DNA of 64,000 nt from a virus. Its lineage: Duplodnaviria > Caudoviricetes. Positions within the stretch are counted from its first letter, which is position 1, and every line of letters starts with the position of its first letter. Made by a program: the position numbers and the translations under genes. The stretch covers positions 1 through 64,000 of IMG/VR virus record IMGVR_UViG_3300020049_012431, one strand, 5' to 3'. The notes below the pieces were generated by a model. That model made no database searches and was not told where the DNA came from. It was given only the letters and a program-made list of their open reading frames with translations. Of the stretch, positions 7,262 through 59,272 are shown piece after piece.

Positions 7262-7687
7262 ATGTATATAACTAATATGAATTACTTAGGAATGAAGCTA
7301 AGCTCACAGAAGCTAGCTGAATATATTACTTCAAAACTACTAGAATTAAACATCGAAGTAACAAATGAAGGTGTTTACTCTGAAACAATCAAGCTTATAC
7401 ACAACGCGGATAATAGAATTTTTAAATCAACTGTAGTTAATAAAATTGTAATGAACCCTGCTGACCCTAGAATTATTAAACTTGGCAGGAACTATCTTGA
7501 AAGCACTAGATTAACAAAAAAACAAAGCGATGCGCTAATTAATTTCTTCTTTGTTGAGTTACCTAATAATGGTATATTGTTTGATCTTAGTAACGGCGAA
7601 AACGCTAAGTATATCGAAAACGGAACAAAGATTGCTATCTGGCCAGAACCAACAAACTTTCCTATAGAGATGACGGAGACAGTATGA
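7262..7687 (+). CDS. Hypothetical protein
   Basis: 141-aa ORF, GAGGAG SD. Confidence 0.65.
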   Translation: MYITNMNYLGMKLSSQKLAEYITSKLLELNIEVTNEGVYSETIKLIHNADNRIFKSTVVNKIVMNPADPRIIKLGRNYLESTRLTKKQSDALINFFFVELPNNGILFDLSNGENAKYIENGTKIAIWPEPTNFPIEMTETV

Positions 7688-8892
7688 AGTTATATATTAA
7701 CCATATAAAAACATTGAATAAAAAAAAATCAGTTCAGTTATTTTCTATGTTGAAAAAACATAAGGACAATAATTTGAGCCGCTCAGGGCATACAATGGTC
7801 AAGAAAAGTGTTCGCAATGCTCGCCTTTTATTAAAATTAATGAATTCTAGTGTTTATATATATTCAAACAAACGCAATTCTATTGAAGGAATTGAGGCTA
7901 GCAGCTTTTGCGGCGGACCGATCAGTCTTAGACTAGAAGAATATAAACAAGTAAAATTAGAACTGCGCGAAAAAATCAAACAAGCAAGACAAAAAAACCG
8001 AGAACTAAAAAGCGTCGAGCGTGAGTTTGGCGGAATTGAATATGAGACCGTCGGTGGTGTATTTTTAAAGACACAGACAATCATGGCGCTTGCTGGATCG
8101 GCACAAATTGAAAGAATGAATAAACCAAAAAAACCCACACAAGATGACAAGAGAACATTTGTTGGTGTTGAATTAGAATTAATCAGTAAATTATCTAGAG
8201 AAGATATGAAAAAAGCTTTAGCTAAACAATTACTTGGTGGTTATGTATACTTGAAAGATGACTCTAGTATTGCAAAGGAAAACGAGGGAGATAGGACACA
8301 TGAAATAACTGTGTTAGCGCCTCAAGACACAATCAAGGATGTAATTCGTCGATTGTGTTCTGTGTTAAATGATGATGCTGTAGGAAGCTATGTAAACAAT
8401 AGTTGCGGGCTACACGTTCATTTAGACGCTAGACACAGAGATAAAGCTGTTATGTTTAATAATTTGGTAAAAGCATTACCTATGCTTAAAAATCTAGTGC
8501 CACGTACTCGCACCATGAGCGAACAAGGTAATAGATATTGCCGAATGAATGAAACATCAACATTTGAGGACAGTAGCACTGATAGATATTTAGCTATTAA
8601 TGGTAGAAATGCTTTTGATAAATACCGTACTATTGAGGTTCGTATGCATAGCGGTAGCACTAATGCAGCAAAAATCAATAATTGGATAGACATCCTATGT
8701 TCATTAGTTGATGCACCATTGATTGCAACACCAATTCATAATGTGTATGAATATCAAAGTGTTATTGAATGCAGCAGCAAGTTATCAGAGTTTATTAGAG
8801 CACGTACAGAATTGTTTTGCGGAAAGATGGCCGCCGCTGTAGATACTAGAGCCGATCATTATTTTTATTCACAAGGGGATCTTTATGTGTAA
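7684..8892 (+). CDS. Putative amidoligase (COOH-NH2 ligase type 2) with N-terminal extension
   Basis: VGVELEL, KDDSSI, HEIT, SCGLHVHLD, RYLAIN, TIEVRMHSGS motifs. Confidence 0.85.
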   Translation: MKLYINHIKTLNKKKSVQLFSMLKKHKDNNLSRSGHTMVKKSVRNARLLLKLMNSSVYIYSNKRNSIEGIEASSFCGGPISLRLEEYKQVKLELREKIKQARQKNRELKSVEREFGGIEYETVGGVFLKTQTIMALAGSAQIERMNKPKKPTQDDKRTFVGVELELISKLSREDMKKALAKQLLGGYVYLKDDSSIAKENEGDRTHEITVLAPQDTIKDVIRRLCSVLNDDAVGSYVNNSCGLHVHLDARHRDKAVMFNNLVKALPMLKNLVPRTRTMSEQGNRYCRMNETSTFEDSSTDRYLAINGRNAFDKYRTIEVRMHSGSTNAAKINNWIDILCSLVDAPLIATPIHNVYEYQSVIECSSKLSEFIRARTELFCGKMAAAVDTRADHYFYSQGDLYV

Positions 8893-9826
8893 AGTATTAA
8901 TCATTCCATCCATTAAACATCAACAAGCTACAGCAGAATTTGTTGCTTTAATGGGACAAAAGATGACACATGGCAACAATGACGGTCTTGGTTATGCGGC
9001 AATCAATGCTTCTGGTGATTTATTCGGTGAGCGATGGTTCAAAAATGAAGATGCGTTTATATCTCAAAAAAATGATTCGCCGGGAATGAACTCGGTCAAA
9101 GCATGGGGACCAGCATTAAAGACTTTGCCAAGCTTGAACTTAAGCAATCGGTTTGGTGTGGGTTCTATTATAGATGCTGCTGCTATTACAGTACATACGC
9201 GCATGGCAACATGTGAAAAAAGTTTACGTAATGTACATCCTTTTGTTGACAATGAGTTTGACACAAGCGTCATCCACAACGGAGTAATTCGCAACGTAGA
9301 TGAATTTGATTTAAAACTTAGTACATGCGATAGCGAGAGTATCCTAATAAGTTATTTAGAGAATGGTGTAAATAAAGATATTAAAGCAGTACAGGATATG
9401 GTCGATGCCCTACAAGGATATTATGCTTGTGGTGTGTTTAGTAGGGATGCATCTGGTCAACGTATTTTAGATGTATTTAAGTATAACAACAATAACCTAG
9501 TGATTAGTTATGTTGATCAACTTGAAACATATGTCCTTGCTACCAGCATGGCCGATGTTGAGAGTGTATGTAAATACTTAGGATATACATTCAGTCCGGG
9601 GATTGATGTTTGTGATAACTTTCTAACAAGACTAAATCCATTTACTGGTGAGATAATTGAACAAATTCGATTTAATAGTCCAGCCTTTGTACCAAAAGCA
9701 CAAACCTATCCTACAGCTAAATACCAAGGATACACACAATATAAACCAAGTAAATACCAAGTTGATGAGGACTTATTACATCTCTGGACACTACCTAGTA
9801 CCATTAGAGAGATAACAGAACCATAG
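8885..9826 (+). CDS. Class II (Ntn) glutamine amidotransferase
   Basis: N-terminal MC, NNDGLG, HTRMAT, NVHPF, HNGVI, DSE motifs. Confidence 0.9.
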   Translation: MCKVLIIPSIKHQQATAEFVALMGQKMTHGNNDGLGYAAINASGDLFGERWFKNEDAFISQKNDSPGMNSVKAWGPALKTLPSLNLSNRFGVGSIIDAAAITVHTRMATCEKSLRNVHPFVDNEFDTSVIHNGVIRNVDEFDLKLSTCDSESILISYLENGVNKDIKAVQDMVDALQGYYACGVFSRDASGQRILDVFKYNNNNLVISYVDQLETYVLATSMADVESVCKYLGYTFSPGIDVCDNFLTRLNPFTGEIIEQIRFNSPAFVPKAQTYPTAKYQGYTQYKPSKYQVDEDLLHLWTLPSTIREITEP

Positions 9827-16223: not shown

Positions 16224-16885
16224 AAAAAATTATATTATCATCACTATTGGTTTTAGGGGCTTGCGCTCCAGTCGCTGGACCAAGAGGCGAAATGGGACCT
16301 GCTGCCCCTGCCGTGGTGGTTGCACCAGTGTCTTCTGTTGATGCGGACATTAAAGCACTCATTTCAGATGAAAACGCATATAGGGTTAGTCTTGGTCAGC
16401 CAGTTCTTTCAGCGGGACTTTCTTGTACTTTGTCAACCATTACTGGTGGGGATAGAATTCAAGCTAGTATTGCTGGACACAACACATTAACTGGTATTTC
16501 CCAAGTATATGCGTTTACATTTATGGGAGAATTTAATCAAGCTAATAGTAATGTTAATGATGGACTAAATGTCTTACCTCAATCATTAAGACCGTTATAT
16601 ACAAATATGTATCTTCTTCGATGTCAAGGTCAGATTGTTATTAGAGAAACCGATTATGTTCCATTTGAGTTAACTAGTGATGATGGATCTGTATTGTATA
16701 TAGACGGCGTTAAAGTTATTGATAATGACAATGCCCATGGTGCGGTAAAGGTAACTGGTGTAAAACAACTTCGACGCGGAGTACATTCATTCAGACTTGA
16801 TTTTGCTCAGTCTGGTGGTGGAAACCAAGCACTCATCCTAACATCAGGTAATGAACCAATTGCTAATAAATTTTTCGCACACTAG
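16220..16885 (+). CDS. PA14-domain lipoprotein
   Basis: Lipobox VLGAC; FELTSDDGSVLYIDGVKVIDND..HG...GVHSFRLDF PA14 signature. Confidence 0.85.
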   Translation: MKKIILSSLLVLGACAPVAGPRGEMGPAAPAVVVAPVSSVDADIKALISDENAYRVSLGQPVLSAGLSCTLSTITGGDRIQASIAGHNTLTGISQVYAFTFMGEFNQANSNVNDGLNVLPQSLRPLYTNMYLLRCQGQIVIRETDYVPFELTSDDGSVLYIDGVKVIDNDNAHGAVKVTGVKQLRRGVHSFRLDFAQSGGGNQALILTSGNEPIANKFFAH

Positions 16886-16894
16886 GAAGTTAAT

Positions 16895-17083
16895 ATGACA
16901 CGATACCTATATGCATTAAGTGCCGCTCATACTAATGTCGATGATCCGGTTATCATATCATTATGGGAAGACAGAAACGACGCTATAGATGCCGAAAAAC
17001 GAGCAAGAGCTAATGGTTACCAATATACTAACATTGAAGAAGTTGCGGTTAATAAGGATGAACTATGGGACTTGGAGGAATAG
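16895..17083 (+). CDS. Hypothetical protein
   Basis: 62-aa ORF. Confidence 0.55.
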   Translation: MTRYLYALSAAHTNVDDPVIISLWEDRNDAIDAEKRARANGYQYTNIEEVAVNKDELWDLEE

Positions 17084-17084
17084 T

Positions 17085-17381
17085 ATGGATAATAAAATCT
17101 ACATCTACATTCACGGATACGCAGAAGATAAACTTAAAGAAGTAATACTAAATGCTATTGCCGAATACCAGAAAAATGCTTTTATACTTCCTGTTAAACA
17201 CAATAGCTACCCATCCATAAGTGTAGAGCAAGTACCGTTAAATCTATCCGAAACAAATTTAATACCTACTCTTGTATTTGATTATAACGTTGCAGCAGCT
17301 CAAAAAGAAGACATAGTGAAATTAAAAAAGGTCGCAGATTCTTTAGAAACACTTAAGAATTTTTTAAAAAAGCAGGAGTAA
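17085..17381 (+). CDS. Hypothetical protein
   Basis: GGAGG SD before ATG 17085. Confidence 0.6.
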   Translation: MDNKIYIYIHGYAEDKLKEVILNAIAEYQKNAFILPVKHNSYPSISVEQVPLNLSETNLIPTLVFDYNVAAAQKEDIVKLKKVADSLETLKNFLKKQE

Positions 17382-17385
17382 TAGT

Positions 17386-17718
17386 ATGGAATATATTTTA
17401 AATTCAGTTGGTCCCGCAGAAAGTAAAAGAGTAACAATACAAATACCTTTGAATAGTGAGGCATTTGATTTTGTTTGTGGGTATTATAATACTCCATTAT
17501 TATTGACATTAAGTGCATCTGGATTAGCGAAGTTTATTATTATTAAAAATGGTCAAACTGTGGCAACATTATTTAATAACAATAATAATTTGAATATATT
17601 ATTTTATAATACAGTAAACTATACCGGGTATGATTTAATAGAAGTTATTGGTATAAATAGAGAATATAATGTCTATCAAGATTTGTATATAGGGTGGGAC
17701 TTGGGTGATGTGTTATGA
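17386..17718 (+). CDS. Hypothetical protein
   Basis: 110-aa ORF, AGGAG SD. Confidence 0.55.
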   Translation: MEYILNSVGPAESKRVTIQIPLNSEAFDFVCGYYNTPLLLTLSASGLAKFIIIKNGQTVATLFNNNNNLNILFYNTVNYTGYDLIEVIGINREYNVYQDLYIGWDLGDVL

Positions 17719-17972
17719 AACGAAGTGAAGCTTTAGCGCTGATAGCAAATCAGTTAGATTTTTTAAATAACAAATTTGAAGGGGTGCGTTTTGATTTTAC
17801 AAAAGAAGAACTGGCTCATGCCGATGTTATTTTGACGACACTAGAGGCTGCCGGTATGCAGCCACCAAACATCACATTGAGAGAATTAATTCCAAGAAGT
17901 TTGTGTCAAGTAATTCTTGACGTAGACAAACATCGGTACGCATGTTGGGAGCCAGAAAATGGGAACAAATAA
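17715..17972 (+). CDS. Hypothetical protein
   Basis: 85-aa ORF coupled to neighbours. Confidence 0.6.
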   Translation: MKRSEALALIANQLDFLNNKFEGVRFDFTKEELAHADVILTTLEAAGMQPPNITLRELIPRSLCQVILDVDKHRYACWEPENGNK

Positions 17973-18225
17973 AAATGACTGCTGTTATCCTGTTATTATA
18001 GATGATGTCTCGCAGAAACAATTTTGTGAACCAGGTTTAACTAAACGTGAATATTTTTCAGCATTGGCAATGCAACAACTTATTGGTAAAATTTTTGGCC
18101 ATGTATATGGTCATGATGTAAAAGGTAATTGTGCCGATGCGATTCAATGTGCTGAGTTGGCTGTAAAATATGCCGATGCATTAATTAATGAATTAAATAA
18201 GACAGAGGAGACAAATAATGTCTGA
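17959..18225 (+). CDS. Conserved small phage protein
   Basis: GLTKREYFSALAMQ...AVKYADALI pattern. Confidence 0.7.
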   Translation: MGTNKNDCCYPVIIDDVSQKQFCEPGLTKREYFSALAMQQLIGKIFGHVYGHDVKGNCADAIQCAELAVKYADALINELNKTEETNNV

Positions 18226-18418
18226 TAGTACAGATGATGTTGATTGGTACGATGAGGATTATGATGATGATAGGATTGATTTAACTAAATTAATACGTAA
18301 ATTAGAAAAAATTGCATATGCGGATTTGGATAATTTTAAAAACGAACAACACATGATTAATTATATGAAAAAAATGACAAAAATAATTATGTCAGATTTA
18401 ACAGGATGGGATTATTAA
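18218..18418 (+). CDS. Acidic hypothetical protein
   Basis: GAGGAG SD. Confidence 0.55.
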   Translation: MSDSTDDVDWYDEDYDDDRIDLTKLIRKLEKIAYADLDNFKNEQHMINYMKKMTKIIMSDLTGWDY

Positions 18419-18557
18419 ATGAAAATATTTTTTACGATTTTAGCAATTGGTTTAGTCAGTAGTTTATTACCGTTAGGATATTATAGTGTGGTGTTTGGTG
18501 CCCCTGCTGTTATTTTAAATACTATCATACTAAGTTTGGTATTTAAGAAAGAATTGT

Positions 18558-18791
18558 ATGGAATTTAAAGTCGGGGATATAGTCGAGTGGTGTGGGGCAA
18601 TTGGCAAAGTAATGATTGATGATAACACTCAATCCTTAAGTAGACCAATTTGCTGTCAATTTGGAGAGCCCTCTCGGTGTTTTTATTTTACAGCTGATGG
18701 TAAAGCGTTTCCTTGGCATAAAGAACCAAGCTTGAAGTTAATACATGGAGGTGCGATTGAGCAACTTAGCAGAGAACCTATTGGTTCATGA
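18558..18791 (+). CDS. Hypothetical phage protein
   Basis: FKVGDIVEW...FTADGK...EPSLKL pattern. Confidence 0.6.
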   Translation: MEFKVGDIVEWCGAIGKVMIDDNTQSLSRPICCQFGEPSRCFYFTADGKAFPWHKEPSLKLIHGGAIEQLSREPIGS

Positions 18792-19815
18792 AGAACCATT
18801 ATTGAATTTTCCTGATACCCGATACATGGGAAGCAAAAGAAAACTGCTGCCATCACTACAAGGAATTTTTAAGCAATTAGATTTCCGCACAAGTCTTGAT
18901 GCTTTTTCTGGAACTTCATCAGTAGCATATCTATTGAAATCGCTCGGTAAATCCGTAGATACAAATGATTATTTGATGTTCAACTATTTCATCGCCAAAG
19001 CACTCATTGAAAACAATGGAACGATTTTGACTGATGAGGAAGTAGAAGAAATTTGCACATTCAATGATGACAAAAATAACTTCATTGAAAAGAATTTTTC
19101 AAATATTTATTATTCAAAAAAAGACTGCAAATGGCTTGATTCTGCATGGGCAAACATTGAGTTCATAACCGACCCATACAAGAAAGCTATTGCGCTAACT
19201 GCATTGTGCAGAGCTTGTATTAAGAAAAGACCCAGAGGGATTTTTACTTATACTGGCATGAGATACGATGATGGCAGAAAAGATTTAAAAACGGAACTTG
19301 CCGACCATTTTGCAGAAGCCGTAAAAATGGTGAATCGCTCTGTCATCACCAGTAAAAAGAAATGCATTGCCTACAACCAAGATATAATGAAGTTTAAGAA
19401 ATCAAACTATGACTTGGTATATCTTGATCCACCTTACTTTTCGCTAAAATCTGATAATGAGTACTCTCGTAGGTATCACTTTCTTGAAGGCCTTGTTTCT
19501 TATTGGTCTCATGTGGAAATCAATCAAGAGACGAAGACAAAGAAATTTGACCGAATTGAATCTGATTTCACTCATCGGAGCAAAATTGTTCCTGCGTTTG
19601 AATCGCTGTTTGATAAATTTTCTGACAGCCAAATTGTGATGTCTTACTCTTCAAACTGTTTTCCAGATGCAACTATTTTGAAAAGTCTTTTAAAGAATGC
19701 TGGCAAGGCTGTTGAGCTTATTGAGATTGATTATGTTTATTCAGTAGGAACGCACTCACACAAGAAAGATAATGAATCTAATCGTGTTAAGGAATACGTC
19801 TTTTTAGGACTGTAG
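18745..19815 (+). CDS. N6-adenine DNA methyltransferase (Dam/D12 class)
   Basis: RYMGSK, DAFSGTSSV (motif I) and YLDPPY (motif IV). Confidence 0.9.
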   Translation: MEVRLSNLAENLLVHEEPLLNFPDTRYMGSKRKLLPSLQGIFKQLDFRTSLDAFSGTSSVAYLLKSLGKSVDTNDYLMFNYFIAKALIENNGTILTDEEVEEICTFNDDKNNFIEKNFSNIYYSKKDCKWLDSAWANIEFITDPYKKAIALTALCRACIKKRPRGIFTYTGMRYDDGRKDLKTELADHFAEAVKMVNRSVITSKKKCIAYNQDIMKFKKSNYDLVYLDPPYFSLKSDNEYSRRYHFLEGLVSYWSHVEINQETKTKKFDRIESDFTHRSKIVPAFESLFDKFSDSQIVMSYSSNCFPDATILKSLLKNAGKAVELIEIDYVYSVGTHSHKKDNESNRVKEYVFLGL

Positions 19816-19913
19816 CCTTTCCTTGCCACGATTCCAAATTGTGAATTTCAAATTTACTTAGGCGAGCTATTTCAAATAGCCGTCTTTTGCGAAAGTAAGA
19901 ATGAGGTCGAAGA

Positions 19914-20258
19914 GTGAAAAGCGAGCAATTTGCAGAAGAAATGCTAGAAGAGATTGAAAACTTTAAAGATTTAACCAAAGAAGAACTTCCAGTAATCGCA
20001 AAAGAATATTTACAGTATAAAATAGTGAATTCTATTCTTGGTATTATATCAGGAAGCGTCTTGTTAATCCTATCAGCTATTGCGATTATAATTTGTGTAA
20101 ATAATGGTAGGCCCGTGGGTATAACAATAGGATTGGGGGTTGGGTTTACGGGATTTTCTATAACAGTTTTAAGTATAGACACACTTCTCCGCGTTATTTT
20201 ACAACCTCACCGCATGGCTATTGACTCAATAATATCATTAATAGGTAAAACAAAATGA
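19914..20258 (+). CDS. Membrane protein (2 TM)
   Basis: KEELPVIAKEYLQY followed by two hydrophobic helices. Confidence 0.6.
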   Translation: MKSEQFAEEMLEEIENFKDLTKEELPVIAKEYLQYKIVNSILGIISGSVLLILSAIAIIICVNNGRPVGITIGLGVGFTGFSITVLSIDTLLRVILQPHRMAIDSIISLIGKTK

Positions 20259-20262
20259 AATA

Positions 20263-20291
20263 TTGACAAAGACTAAAAATTATATTATTCT
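20263..20291 (+). promoter_or_regulatory. Sigma70-type promoter
   Basis: TTGACA-17-TATTCT. Confidence 0.7.
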
Positions 20292-20297
20292 GTATTT

Positions 20298-20496
20298 GTA
20301 AAAGCGATGTGGAAGCTGAACTTTCTACAGCGGGATGTAGACGAAAGACAAATCCAGTTAGTTCTGGAGACACATTGACGGGAGGCCAAAACCCCACCTC
20401 ATCGGTCAGCGCCTTAAATGTGCGCAGGAGCAATCCAAGACAACGAAAAGGGTCGGTCGGCAACGGGGTACGCCAGAGTCGCGTCTGGCCTTTTAC
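20298..20496 (+). ncRNA. Candidate ~200-nt structured non-coding RNA
   Basis: GC-rich island starting 7 nt after the -10 box; 5' GTAAAAG pairs with 3' CTTTTAC; internal hairpins. Confidence 0.6.
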
Positions 20497-20543
20497 ACAA
20501 CCTGAGTATGTTGTAAAACTACTCACCTTATAATTGGAGCAAT

Positions 20544-20753
20544 GTGAAAACATCATTCTATATAAATACCGACATTGAGCAAGCTCTAGACTTAACTGGC
20601 CTAGCTTTAGACGAATTAGAATCTGTTGTTGGTAGATTTGCCGCTCACTCAAGACGGTCCGGGCTTTTGCGCGGTAAAATAGTGGAATATTCTTGCGGTA
20701 AAATTGAAATTAGAACTTGTTTTGGTAATAAATTATTGTGGAGTAATAAATAA
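20544..20753 (+). CDS. Hypothetical protein
   Basis: GGAG SD, GTG start. Confidence 0.5.
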   Translation: MKTSFYINTDIEQALDLTGLALDELESVVGRFAAHSRRSGLLRGKIVEYSCGKIEIRTCFGNKLLWSNK

Positions 20754-20805
20754 ACTGTATTGTTTGAAAGAAATTTTGAACATTAAAAATTAATAGGAGA
20801 AGAAA

Positions 20806-21108
20806 ATGAGACAACAAAAATTTAAAATTGGCGATAAGGTAGAAGTAAAACAAGCTGCACTCACTTGGTGCCTAAATAACCCAGACGCATATGAGGTGAG
20901 CACAACAGGACAACTAAGTGATGAACTCGCCTATGACATACAATGTAACATTGGTCTTGCGTCTTTATTGGGAGAAAAATTTGTTGGCACCATCACTCGA
21001 ATTGGAGCAGAAGATGATAAGAATGATTATTTCTATAGAGTTAAACTTGATACGGTTTTTGGAATAGAAGAGTCATATCATGATATTAAAGATCTTTTAC
21101 GGAGATAA
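20806..21108 (+). CDS. Hypothetical protein (KOW/SH3-like FKIGDKV start)
   Basis: AGGAG SD. Confidence 0.65.
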   Translation: MRQQKFKIGDKVEVKQAALTWCLNNPDAYEVSTTGQLSDELAYDIQCNIGLASLLGEKFVGTITRIGAEDDKNDYFYRVKLDTVFGIEESYHDIKDLLRR

Positions 21109-21110
21109 CT

Positions 21111-21386
21111 ATGTTGCACGAATTATTACTAATGCACGCTTGTATTACTGGGATTGGTTGCAATCAAACATTTGAAGCATATAAATTCTATAATAAAGAT
21201 CTGGCTGCTAGCATAAATCGTGTTGAATTTCTTGCGGACCATTATACACCAGGATTTGCTAAAACATTCATTATGCCAGGAGTGGCTCTTGCTATGGGCG
21301 GAAGTGCTATTGTTAATGTAATCGGTCCTGTTAGTTACCGTTATAGTAAAGACACACAAGAAATTCTCTTGACAAAAAGCTTTTAA
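21111..21386 (+). CDS. Hypothetical protein
   Basis: GGAG SD. Confidence 0.6.
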   Translation: MLHELLLMHACITGIGCNQTFEAYKFYNKDLAASINRVEFLADHYTPGFAKTFIMPGVALAMGGSAIVNVIGPVSYRYSKDTQEILLTKSF

Positions 21387-21397
21387 TCTGATAGGAT
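21369..21397 (+). promoter_or_regulatory. Sigma70-type promoter, leaderless geometry
   Basis: TTGACA-17-TAGGAT, then 6 nt to ATG 21404. Confidence 0.65.
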
Positions 21398-21403
21398 AGG
21401 CAC

Positions 21404-22516
21404 ATGAATACAAAATTAAGTCATAGCCAGGTTAATAGATTTAGTATGTGCCCTAAATCTTATTATTTTCATTATATTGAAAAGCTACGACCTATAACAA
21501 CAACAGGAGCATTATTATTTGGAAGCGCACTAGATGCAGCTTTAAATAGTGTTTTACTCGGTAAAACCGATGCGGAGGCAGTGTTTGAACAATCCTTCAC
21601 CCACCAAAAAATTAACGATGTGGAAACGTATTTGCCAACAAGTGAATTTATTATATACGCGAACAATGATATGGATATTGATTTACTCACTGAAGAAGAT
21701 TTTATCTCTATTGAGAAAAAAGTTGAAGAAAATGCGATACAAAGATGTGACAATTACATATCAACTTATCAAACATTAAAAAAGAAAAAATCAGAAAAAG
21801 GATTTGACTGTCTTTCTTTAAATGAAAAACGAACGATGAATTTATTAAACTGGCTTAGCATGAGACGTAAAGGTTTTCTAATGTTAAAGGCTTATGCAAA
21901 AAAAGTAATGCCTAGATTTAACACGGTCCATGAAGTACAACTTTCGATTAATTTAGAAAATGGATCTGGTGACAGCGTAATTGGTTTTGTGGATCTTGTT
22001 GCTGATGTTAAAGGTCATGGTACTGTTATTCTTGATAATAAAACTGCCAGCAGAGCATATGAGTCTGATAGCGTTCGCACCAGCGCTCAGCTTAGTTTAT
22101 ATCTTCATGCGCTTCAAGATAAATACCCAACAAGAAAAGCGGGCTATATTGTTTTAAATAAACAACTAATAAAAAATCGAGTAAAGATTTGCAGTAAATG
22201 CGGAAATGATGGAAGTGGGGCTAGACACAAGACATGCGATGCCATGGTAGGCGGAGAACGATGTCATGGGTCATGGAAAGAAACTATTGCGCCAGAAGTT
22301 GACGTTCAGTTCATTATCGACACAATTCCAGAAAGAGTTGAGAATTTGGTCATTGAGAATATTGACGCAACAAACCAAGCTATAAAGAGCGGAATATTTG
22401 TTAGAAATCTAAATAATTGTCAAAACTGGTTTGGTGGGAAATGCCCCCATTTTGATGTTTGTTATAAAGGTAAAGAAACAAATTTATGTAGAGTGAAGGG
22501 TTCTGGGAAAACATGA
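21404..22516 (+). CDS. PD-(D/E)XK (RecB/Cas4-like) exonuclease
   Basis: LSHSQ..CP..Y, GFVDLV, ILDNKT, QLSLY, C-terminal CxxxxxxxxCPHFDVC; inserted Cys cluster. Confidence 0.85.
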   Translation: MNTKLSHSQVNRFSMCPKSYYFHYIEKLRPITTTGALLFGSALDAALNSVLLGKTDAEAVFEQSFTHQKINDVETYLPTSEFIIYANNDMDIDLLTEEDFISIEKKVEENAIQRCDNYISTYQTLKKKKSEKGFDCLSLNEKRTMNLLNWLSMRRKGFLMLKAYAKKVMPRFNTVHEVQLSINLENGSGDSVIGFVDLVADVKGHGTVILDNKTASRAYESDSVRTSAQLSLYLHALQDKYPTRKAGYIVLNKQLIKNRVKICSKCGNDGSGARHKTCDAMVGGERCHGSWKETIAPEVDVQFIIDTIPERVENLVIENIDATNQAIKSGIFVRNLNNCQNWFGGKCPHFDVCYKGKETNLCRVKGSGKT

Positions 22517-59070: not shown

Positions 59071-59272
59071 CATTTTGTTACTCACTTTTCAGTGGGAGAA
59101 ACCTCTTCGGATTTCTCTCAACCCCTTCTTTTGTTATAGGGTTGTTCAGACTATCGCATCCCTTTCGGGTCCTCTCACTTAGTCGTTCACGCTGCTTTCG
59201 CTTGCGCCCTGTTGTCCGCTTCCGGAGTTCCAAGTCAATCAGAGAAGATTTATACAGCCCCTAGTTAAATTG
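59071..59272 (-). mobile_element. ORF-less group I intron (202 nt) in the major capsid gene
   Basis: P1: exon CAGCCU pairs with GGGCUG with a U-G pair at the splice site; P3 UCUC/GAGA; P7 GACUA/UAGUC; P8 CCC-GAAA-GGG; P9 hairpins; terminal G; removal restores the frame. Confidence 0.9.

Follow-up and report, generated by a model that had tools for sequence, protein, structure and literature searches.

The window analysed here comprises the first 64,000 nucleotides of an IMG/VR phage record that is 78.7 kb long and has a CheckV completeness of 94%; the genes in it lie on the + strand until about 33.6 kb. Within an early or accessory gene block, a D12 adenine methyltransferase gene (18745-19815) is followed by a small membrane-type ORF of 114 aa (ORF114; 19914-20258, + strand), which has GAGG 7 nt before its GTG start and a codon score of +0.12. 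Between this ORF and the next small gene, ORF69 (20544-20753, + strand; 69 aa), there is a gap of 285 nt (20259-20543), which contains the element studied. Two small ORFs come after ORF69, and beyond them are the genes for a PD-(D/E)XK exonuclease (21404-22516), a DnaB-type helicase and a family B DNA polymerase. The DNA polymerase of the closest cultured phages is only about 27% identical, and the stretch is present in sequencing runs from wastewater, activated sludge and freshwater. Elsewhere in the window, an Amidoligase_2 gene adjoins a glutamine amidotransferase (GATase_6) gene (7684-9826), the two being a phage-borne peptide- or metabolite-modifying pair.

Searches with the DNA polymerase and with the exonuclease alignment each found one relative, IMGVR_UViG_3300020050_006168 (polymerase 67%, exonuclease 49% identical), the sole related complete phage found. 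Synteny with it holds only from the exonuclease gene onward, extending beyond the polymerase gene at 45-76% amino-acid identity. The region from 16500 to 21400, comprising the methyltransferase gene, the small ORFs, the element and ORF69, has no counterpart there (comparison with L004:1-4997), such that both the element and ORF69 are absent from this genome. On this comparison, the block upstream of the exonuclease gene is a swap-prone accessory region.

ORF69 has 27 homologs of 61-72% identity, all of them stand-alone proteins of about 70 aa with the same start position, and the family shares the motif FYIN..LTGLALDELESVVGRF..HS.R.GLLRGK...IR.CFGNKLLW. Judged by these alignments, it is a real, conserved, stand-alone phage gene. 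The AlphaFold (AF2) model has a pLDDT of 95 and a beta-alpha-alpha-beta-beta-beta layout; Pfam, Foldseek, the protein atlas and a profile search of the PDB all gave no match. VIA-align produced no convincing fold match either, its highest Z being 4.1, and the weak likeness to lambda Cro (Z 3.6 over 56 aligned residues) is well within search noise.

Coding potential of the gap

An open reading frame of 74 codons (20309-20533) spans the GC-rich part of the gap, and its codon score in frame exceeds that in both shifted frames, the two observations that favour a small, basic, disordered protein being encoded here. Against this, the score itself is close to zero (-0.02, compared with +0.12 to +0.29 for the neighbouring small genes), and inspection of the sequence upstream of GTG 20309 found no Shine-Dalgarno (ribosome-binding) sequence. 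Among 1.84e9 (1.84 billion) protein representatives, no match at E <= 0.001 was found for the 74-aa ORF, its own call included; the same collection contained no homolog of a 144-aa antisense ORF, and neither ORF matched Pfam or PHROG. Furthermore, the frame shows zero synonymous variation between strains where the neighbouring genes carry plenty. The gap is non-coding, as the preliminary description of the locus had supposed.

Composition and predicted structure

The GC island that had been reported is real: values over 100-nt intervals are 0.48-0.57, against about 0.33 in the flanks and 0.367 in the window as a whole, and the core of the element (20298-20500) is 52% GC compared with 36.7% for the window. 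In AT-rich genomes, structured RNAs are known to be marked by a raised GC content. The window contains 30 islands of 80 nt with a GC content of at least 0.52, mostly within genes, and its most GC-rich non-coding stretches are this core and a putative intron in the capsid gene. The latter, a putative group I intron of 202 nt (59071-59272, minus strand), shows GACUA...UAGUC and a P1-like pairing on inspection by eye; it has no Rfam match even at E <= 10. Either introns this minimal escape the Rfam model or the intron call is questionable. Comparison of the element with the other GC islands and elements of the genome found only chance 10-mers.

The motifs named in the preliminary description are all present, bar a 2-nt shift of one hairpin. 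A sigma-70-like promoter match on the + strand (20263-20291; 10/12 score) consists of TTGACA (20263-20268), a 17-nt spacer and TATTCT (20286-20291), and G20298, the transcription start proposed from it, lies 7 nt past these hexamers. Sites of this type number 48, against 50 +/- 8 expected from the shuffled rate, and TTGACA-N15-19-TANNNT occurs 10 times against 7.3 expected; promoter-like matches here are at chance level. The sequence GUAAAAG (20298-20304, + strand), proposed as both the 5' end of a transcript and the 5' strand of a closing helix, exactly complements CTTTTAC at 20490-20496. For a fixed start, about 3% of the AT-rich 7-mers in the window have a perfect complement 100-300 nt downstream.

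On the + strand the predicted structure begins with a left domain (20305-20377), in which a stem CGAUGUG/CACAUUG encloses the hairpins CUACA/UGUAG (20324-20341) and UCCAG/CUGGA; the latter exists but belongs at 20353-20368 rather than at 20355-20370, where it had been placed. A GC-rich central domain (20378-20471), delimited by the minimum free energy (MFE) fold, separates this from the hairpin GCCAGA-GUCGCG-UCUGGC, whose arms are at 20472-20489 as originally described and which, with the CUUUUAC that follows it (to 20496), is a candidate weak terminator or attenuator. The terminator scan, for which at least 5 T in 8 were required, did not list this hairpin, as the tail has just four U. The remaining spacer (20497-20543) contains the GGAG ribosome-binding site of ORF69 (20536-20539), preceded by a small hairpin, either GAGUA/UACUC or UUUUACA/UGUAAAA. 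The complementary arms of the second are present in the sequence, at 20491-20497 and 20512-20518. Alternative pairings are available to the bases of the U-run. About 246 nt separate the promoter-like site from the ORF69 start codon, and the GC hairpin with its U-run is 47 nt before that codon. It was also observed that CACAUUG (20371-20377) can pair either with CGAUGUG (20305-20311) or with CAAUGUG (20540-20546), which spans the GUG start of ORF69; a start-codon sequestration switch is possible on this basis, matches this short being at chance level.

The branched fold that had been predicted is recovered as the MFE structure, with an end helix, a two-hairpin left domain, a branched centre and a 3' hairpin, but its stability is like that of shuffled sequence. 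The z scores of the MFE relative to shuffles are -1.0 for 20298-20520, -1.2 for 20298-20500, -1.4 for the left domain, for which the MFE and centroid structures concur, and +0.37 for the central domain; the minus strand folds worse (z = +0.14).

Variation between strains

All of the comparative evidence comes from one alignment of metagenome contigs that represents only three haplotypes. Near-identical copies of the element are present in contigs from four studies and several habitats, and nucleotide-level conservation between strains holds across the contigs designated X1, X2, X4 and X6. X1, a viral metagenome contig spanning 20193-20947, has 29 differences from the window. None of these falls within 20306-20531; two precede this stretch, at 20305 and at 20292 (G20292A, just after the -10 hexamer), and one is at 20532. 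ORF69 has 21, which are mostly synonymous and include six conservative amino-acid changes, and the gene after it has five, all synonymous. About 20 or more changes would be expected in the element at the synonymous rate of ~10% or higher, and about 4.5 at the background of ~2%. X2 (20180-20441) is identical to the window, and X6 (20284-20500) differs at 20305 alone. The wastewater library that gives X2, a 262-nt contig, is labelled RNA-Seq, a status that is a guess where RNA is concerned, and the contig is unreadable as a transcript.

The promoter hexamers are unchanged in X1, and X4 has one unlocated difference over 20254-20375. A 208-nt contig of X6 contains a look-alike of the promoter region (20248-20292), with deletions of 5 nt and 4 nt and unrelated sequence on either side, which could be either a further instance of this promoter type, in a relative, or an AT-rich match arising by chance.

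The X4 contigs match only 20254-20375 and 20475-20580, both nearly unchanged; between these segments their loose ends are unlike, being unrelated, AT-richer sequence. The replaced segment (20376-20474) corresponds to the predicted central domain (20378-20471) to within a few nucleotides, whereas the sequence of the left domain is retained in X1, X2, X4 and X6. This pattern of a constant scaffold and an exchangeable core is drawn from two short X4 contigs of one run. In X4 the 5' arm of the GC hairpin reads GCU AGA, the substitution C20474U converting a C-G pair to U.G with pairing kept; hence the preservation of the hairpin fits the + strand only. The one other change informative for the helices, C20305A in X1 and X6, abolishes the outermost pair predicted for the left domain. 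As GUAAAAG is invariant in all strains, it neither supports nor opposes the pairing of the ends.

The edges of the conserved block are the stop codon of the upstream gene (X4, at 20254, upstream of which X4 differs by indels) and the ribosome-binding site of ORF69 (X1, at 20531), and to judge from these two alignments what the strains share and conserve is the intergenic region as such. The block identical in X1 also takes in 66 nt of coding sequence (20193-20258) in which there is no synonymous change, and therefore the identity could in part be due to a block of recent recombination. Between X1 and the window, the first two thirds of ORF69 (20532-20715) are about 12% diverged and the flanks 0.6-2%, with a sharp mosaic boundary at 20531/20532, at the ORF69 ribosome-binding site.

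Search for homologs and known RNA classes

No diverged homolog of the element was found in any collection, and covariation of its helices is consequently missing. Comparison with GenBank phages by blastn, in distant mode with 401 nt and in near mode with 12 kb, found no homolog, as did comparison with plasmids by blastn. Words of 20-22 nt taken from the centre and both arms had no exact match in viral or genome contigs, and an exact-word scan of metagenome contigs returned two chance 20-mers with no extended similarity. As protein queries, ORF69, ORF114, the exonuclease and the methyltransferase found nothing in viral contigs, nor did the exonuclease alignment in genome contigs.

No known RNA family was matched, in agreement with the preliminary description. 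At gathering thresholds, the 4227 models of Rfam 15 gave no matches across the whole window; relaxing the limit to E <= 10 in 20100-20700 yielded noise only (MIR812 at 20 bits, STnc280 at 17 and SAM-SAH at 11, with thresholds of 40-80). ARAGORN found no genes in the window, and the hallmarks of tRNA and tmRNA are indeed absent.

Several specific classes were considered and rejected. In a retron ncRNA the inverted repeats a1/a2 pair the two ends; here a perfect 7-nt complement is present, but such complements have a chance rate of about 3% of positions; the 78.7-kb record has no RVT_1 match at E <= 1, in a search for which control genomes were positive, and it is likewise without an integrase or resolvase. 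Retron and attP readings are therefore removed. As ORF69 is a real, conserved, stand-alone gene with its own GGAG and GUG, and the upstream ORF has its own stop, an intron within a coding gene is ruled out. Intron_gpI had no match to the element at E <= 10, a search of low power in that the same model misses the putative capsid-gene intron. For a type III antitoxin RNA, only two-copy repeats of 8-9 nt at chance level could be found and no tandem array. Lastly, an insertion with target-site duplication (TTGTAAAA at 20296/20511; GGAGCAAT at 20427/20536) was rejected, 304 of 2000 shuffles reaching the alignment score.

Interpretation of the element

The element is non-coding, GC-enriched, conserved between strains and modular, and a conserved gene on its strand follows it immediately. 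It is very probably functional as nucleic acid, with the + strand as the active one. Given its non-coding status, its unusually high GC content and its near-identity across strains, the gap probably acts as an RNA leader or a small RNA. The preliminary description favoured a new non-coding RNA. The lack of coding potential, the lack of a known family and the conservation between strains are in line with this, while the discrete transcript bounded by promoter and hairpin, the pairing of its ends and the branched fold are predictions. A leader acting in cis is no less likely than a free RNA, since conservation extends to 20531 and the U-run is short.

The reading considered most likely, with a probability of roughly 0.4, is that the element is the structured 5' leader of the ORF69 transcription unit. 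Transcription would begin at the sigma-70-like promoter, at about 20298, or enter from the upstream gene. The transcript would then fold into the conserved left domain, the replaceable GC-rich central domain and the GC hairpin with its short U-run, and this hairpin, 47 nt before the GUG, may act as a leaky attenuator, perhaps under the control of a ligand or protein. Prematurely ended transcripts would be the ~200-nt RNA originally proposed. Consistent with a leader, conservation reaches 20531, beside the GGAG beginning at 20536; the U-run of four U fails the terminator scan; ORF69 is a real gene on the same strand; and the replacement of 20376-20474 in X4 fits the predicted domain borders. 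On the other side, the fold energy is no better than that of shuffles, and C20305A, a single substitution in a predicted stem, breaks a pair. The identical block includes the coding sequence at 20193-20258, and the background divergence outside ORF69 is only about 2%. That X4 dispenses with or exchanges the central domain would be odd for an aptamer, there is no match to a leader or riboswitch family in Rfam, and the related complete phage lacks the element along with ORF69.

The main rival is a free-standing ncRNA of about 200 nt, running from the promoter at 20263-20291 to the hairpin and U-run at 20472-20496, with paired ends and acting in trans, for instance as a decoy or regulator; we consider this possible but doubtful. 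The promoter-like hexamers lie within the gap, 7 nt before G20298, and are unchanged in X1, while the 7-nt complement of the proposed 5' end comes immediately after the hairpin. The GC island, the non-coding status and the conservation agree with such an RNA, and an exchangeable central domain could be a variable specificity module. However, the terminator is weak, with four U and a failed scan; a complement like that of the ends has a chance rate of ~3% when the start is fixed, a figure that takes no account of the start having been freely chosen; the promoter matches are at chance level; conservation continues 35 nt past the proposed 3' end; and the folding z score is about -1.

Alternatively, the element may be a non-functional passenger, either a GC-richer foreign remnant or an old insertion, that appears conserved only through lying in a block exchanged by recent recombination within a mosaic accessory region. 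The divergence is mosaic, at 12% in the first two thirds of ORF69 against about 2% elsewhere, the identical block takes in 66 nt of coding sequence, and the related phage differs completely in the region preceding its exonuclease gene. The replacement of the central part in X4, and the lack of a homolog in the viral, metagenome, genome, phage and plasmid collections, could also be understood in this way. Nevertheless, the element is near-identical across four studies and several habitats while its flanks vary by substitutions and indels, the edges of the block coincide with the intergenic region, and no protein remnant was detected with Pfam, PHROG or the protein representatives. This explanation is judged unlikely.

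Less probable again is a function exerted by the DNA itself, as a regulatory region or protein-binding platform containing, for instance, operators for the ORF69 protein. This would account for a fold energy like that of random sequence and for the conservation of the whole intergenic region, the promoter part included, and the ORF69 model weakly resembles lambda Cro (Z 3.6). That resemblance is nonetheless well within search noise, repeated palindromic operators are not observed, short repeats being at chance level, and 230 nt of GC-rich sequence far exceeds what operators need. The lack of a turn in the cumulative GC skew near 20.3 kb (over 18-23 kb) argues against a replication origin here.

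It is similarly improbable that the element represents a new class of discrete ~200-nt RNA reaching from the promoter to the hairpin, in which a conserved scaffold, made up of the end helix, the two-hairpin left domain and the 3' hairpin, carries an exchangeable central module that varies between co-circulating strains. Such an architecture, if true, would suit an RNA acting in trans, as a decoy or to confer specificity, for instance in phage-host or phage-phage conflict.

That a known mobile or catalytic RNA, namely a group I intron, a retron ncRNA or a type III antitoxin RNA, was missed by the models is largely refuted and very improbable. The putative 202-nt group I intron in the capsid gene of the same genome, and the likeness of paired ends and short hairpins to a retron msr-msd, speak for this; Rfam is blank even at E 10, which is weak evidence against an intron because the putative capsid-gene intron is missed too. 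All ORF69 homologs, however, are stand-alone proteins of ~70 aa with their own start, leaving no split host gene, the 78.7-kb record has no reverse transcriptase, and tandem repeats are absent. On the evidence given above, it is just as improbable that the 74-aa ORF encodes a protein.

Relationship to known systems

Structured RNA candidates have been described in the intergenic regions of phages, some of them as cis-regulatory leaders upstream of particular genes, and were called by covariation across many homologs (Fremin, Bhatt and Kyrpides 2023, PMC10690425). The present element resembles those candidates in being intergenic, conserved, from an IMG/VR phage, upstream of a conserved gene on the same strand and outside any Rfam family; it differs in having no diverged homologs, and hence no covariation. 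With attenuation leaders and riboswitches, which are structured 5' UTRs carrying a terminator hairpin ahead of the first gene, it shares a GC hairpin and U-run ahead of a start codon and alternative pairings of the U-run, but it has no match to an aptamer family, its U-run is short and its central domain is swappable.

The put RNAs of HK022 are cis-acting antitermination RNAs of about 70 nt, found in lambdoid phages just downstream of early promoters. In the element, two short stem-loops likewise follow an early-type promoter and precede a terminator-like hairpin and + strand genes; this is a likeness of layout only. The phi29 pRNA (Rfam Phage_pRNA) is a phage RNA, some 170-200 nt long, in which the paired 5' and 3' ends close a branched interior, as is predicted for the proposed RNA of ~200 nt. 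Unlike the pRNA, the element has no Rfam match at any threshold, and it comes from a 79-kb phage that has a DnaB-type helicase and is not phi29-like, at a locus away from the genome ends and the packaging genes.

The element is thus an orphan candidate of a well-populated kind, that of unclassified conserved intergenic elements in phages, and the combination of a scaffold with an exchangeable core, as read from the contig alignment, appears to be its only unusual feature. If a real leader or sRNA, it would give a poorly sampled, uncultured phage lineage an orphan regulatory RNA, and would link that RNA to a widespread, uncharacterised family of phage proteins of ~70 aa. The interesting part, if real, would be the scaffold with its swappable core.
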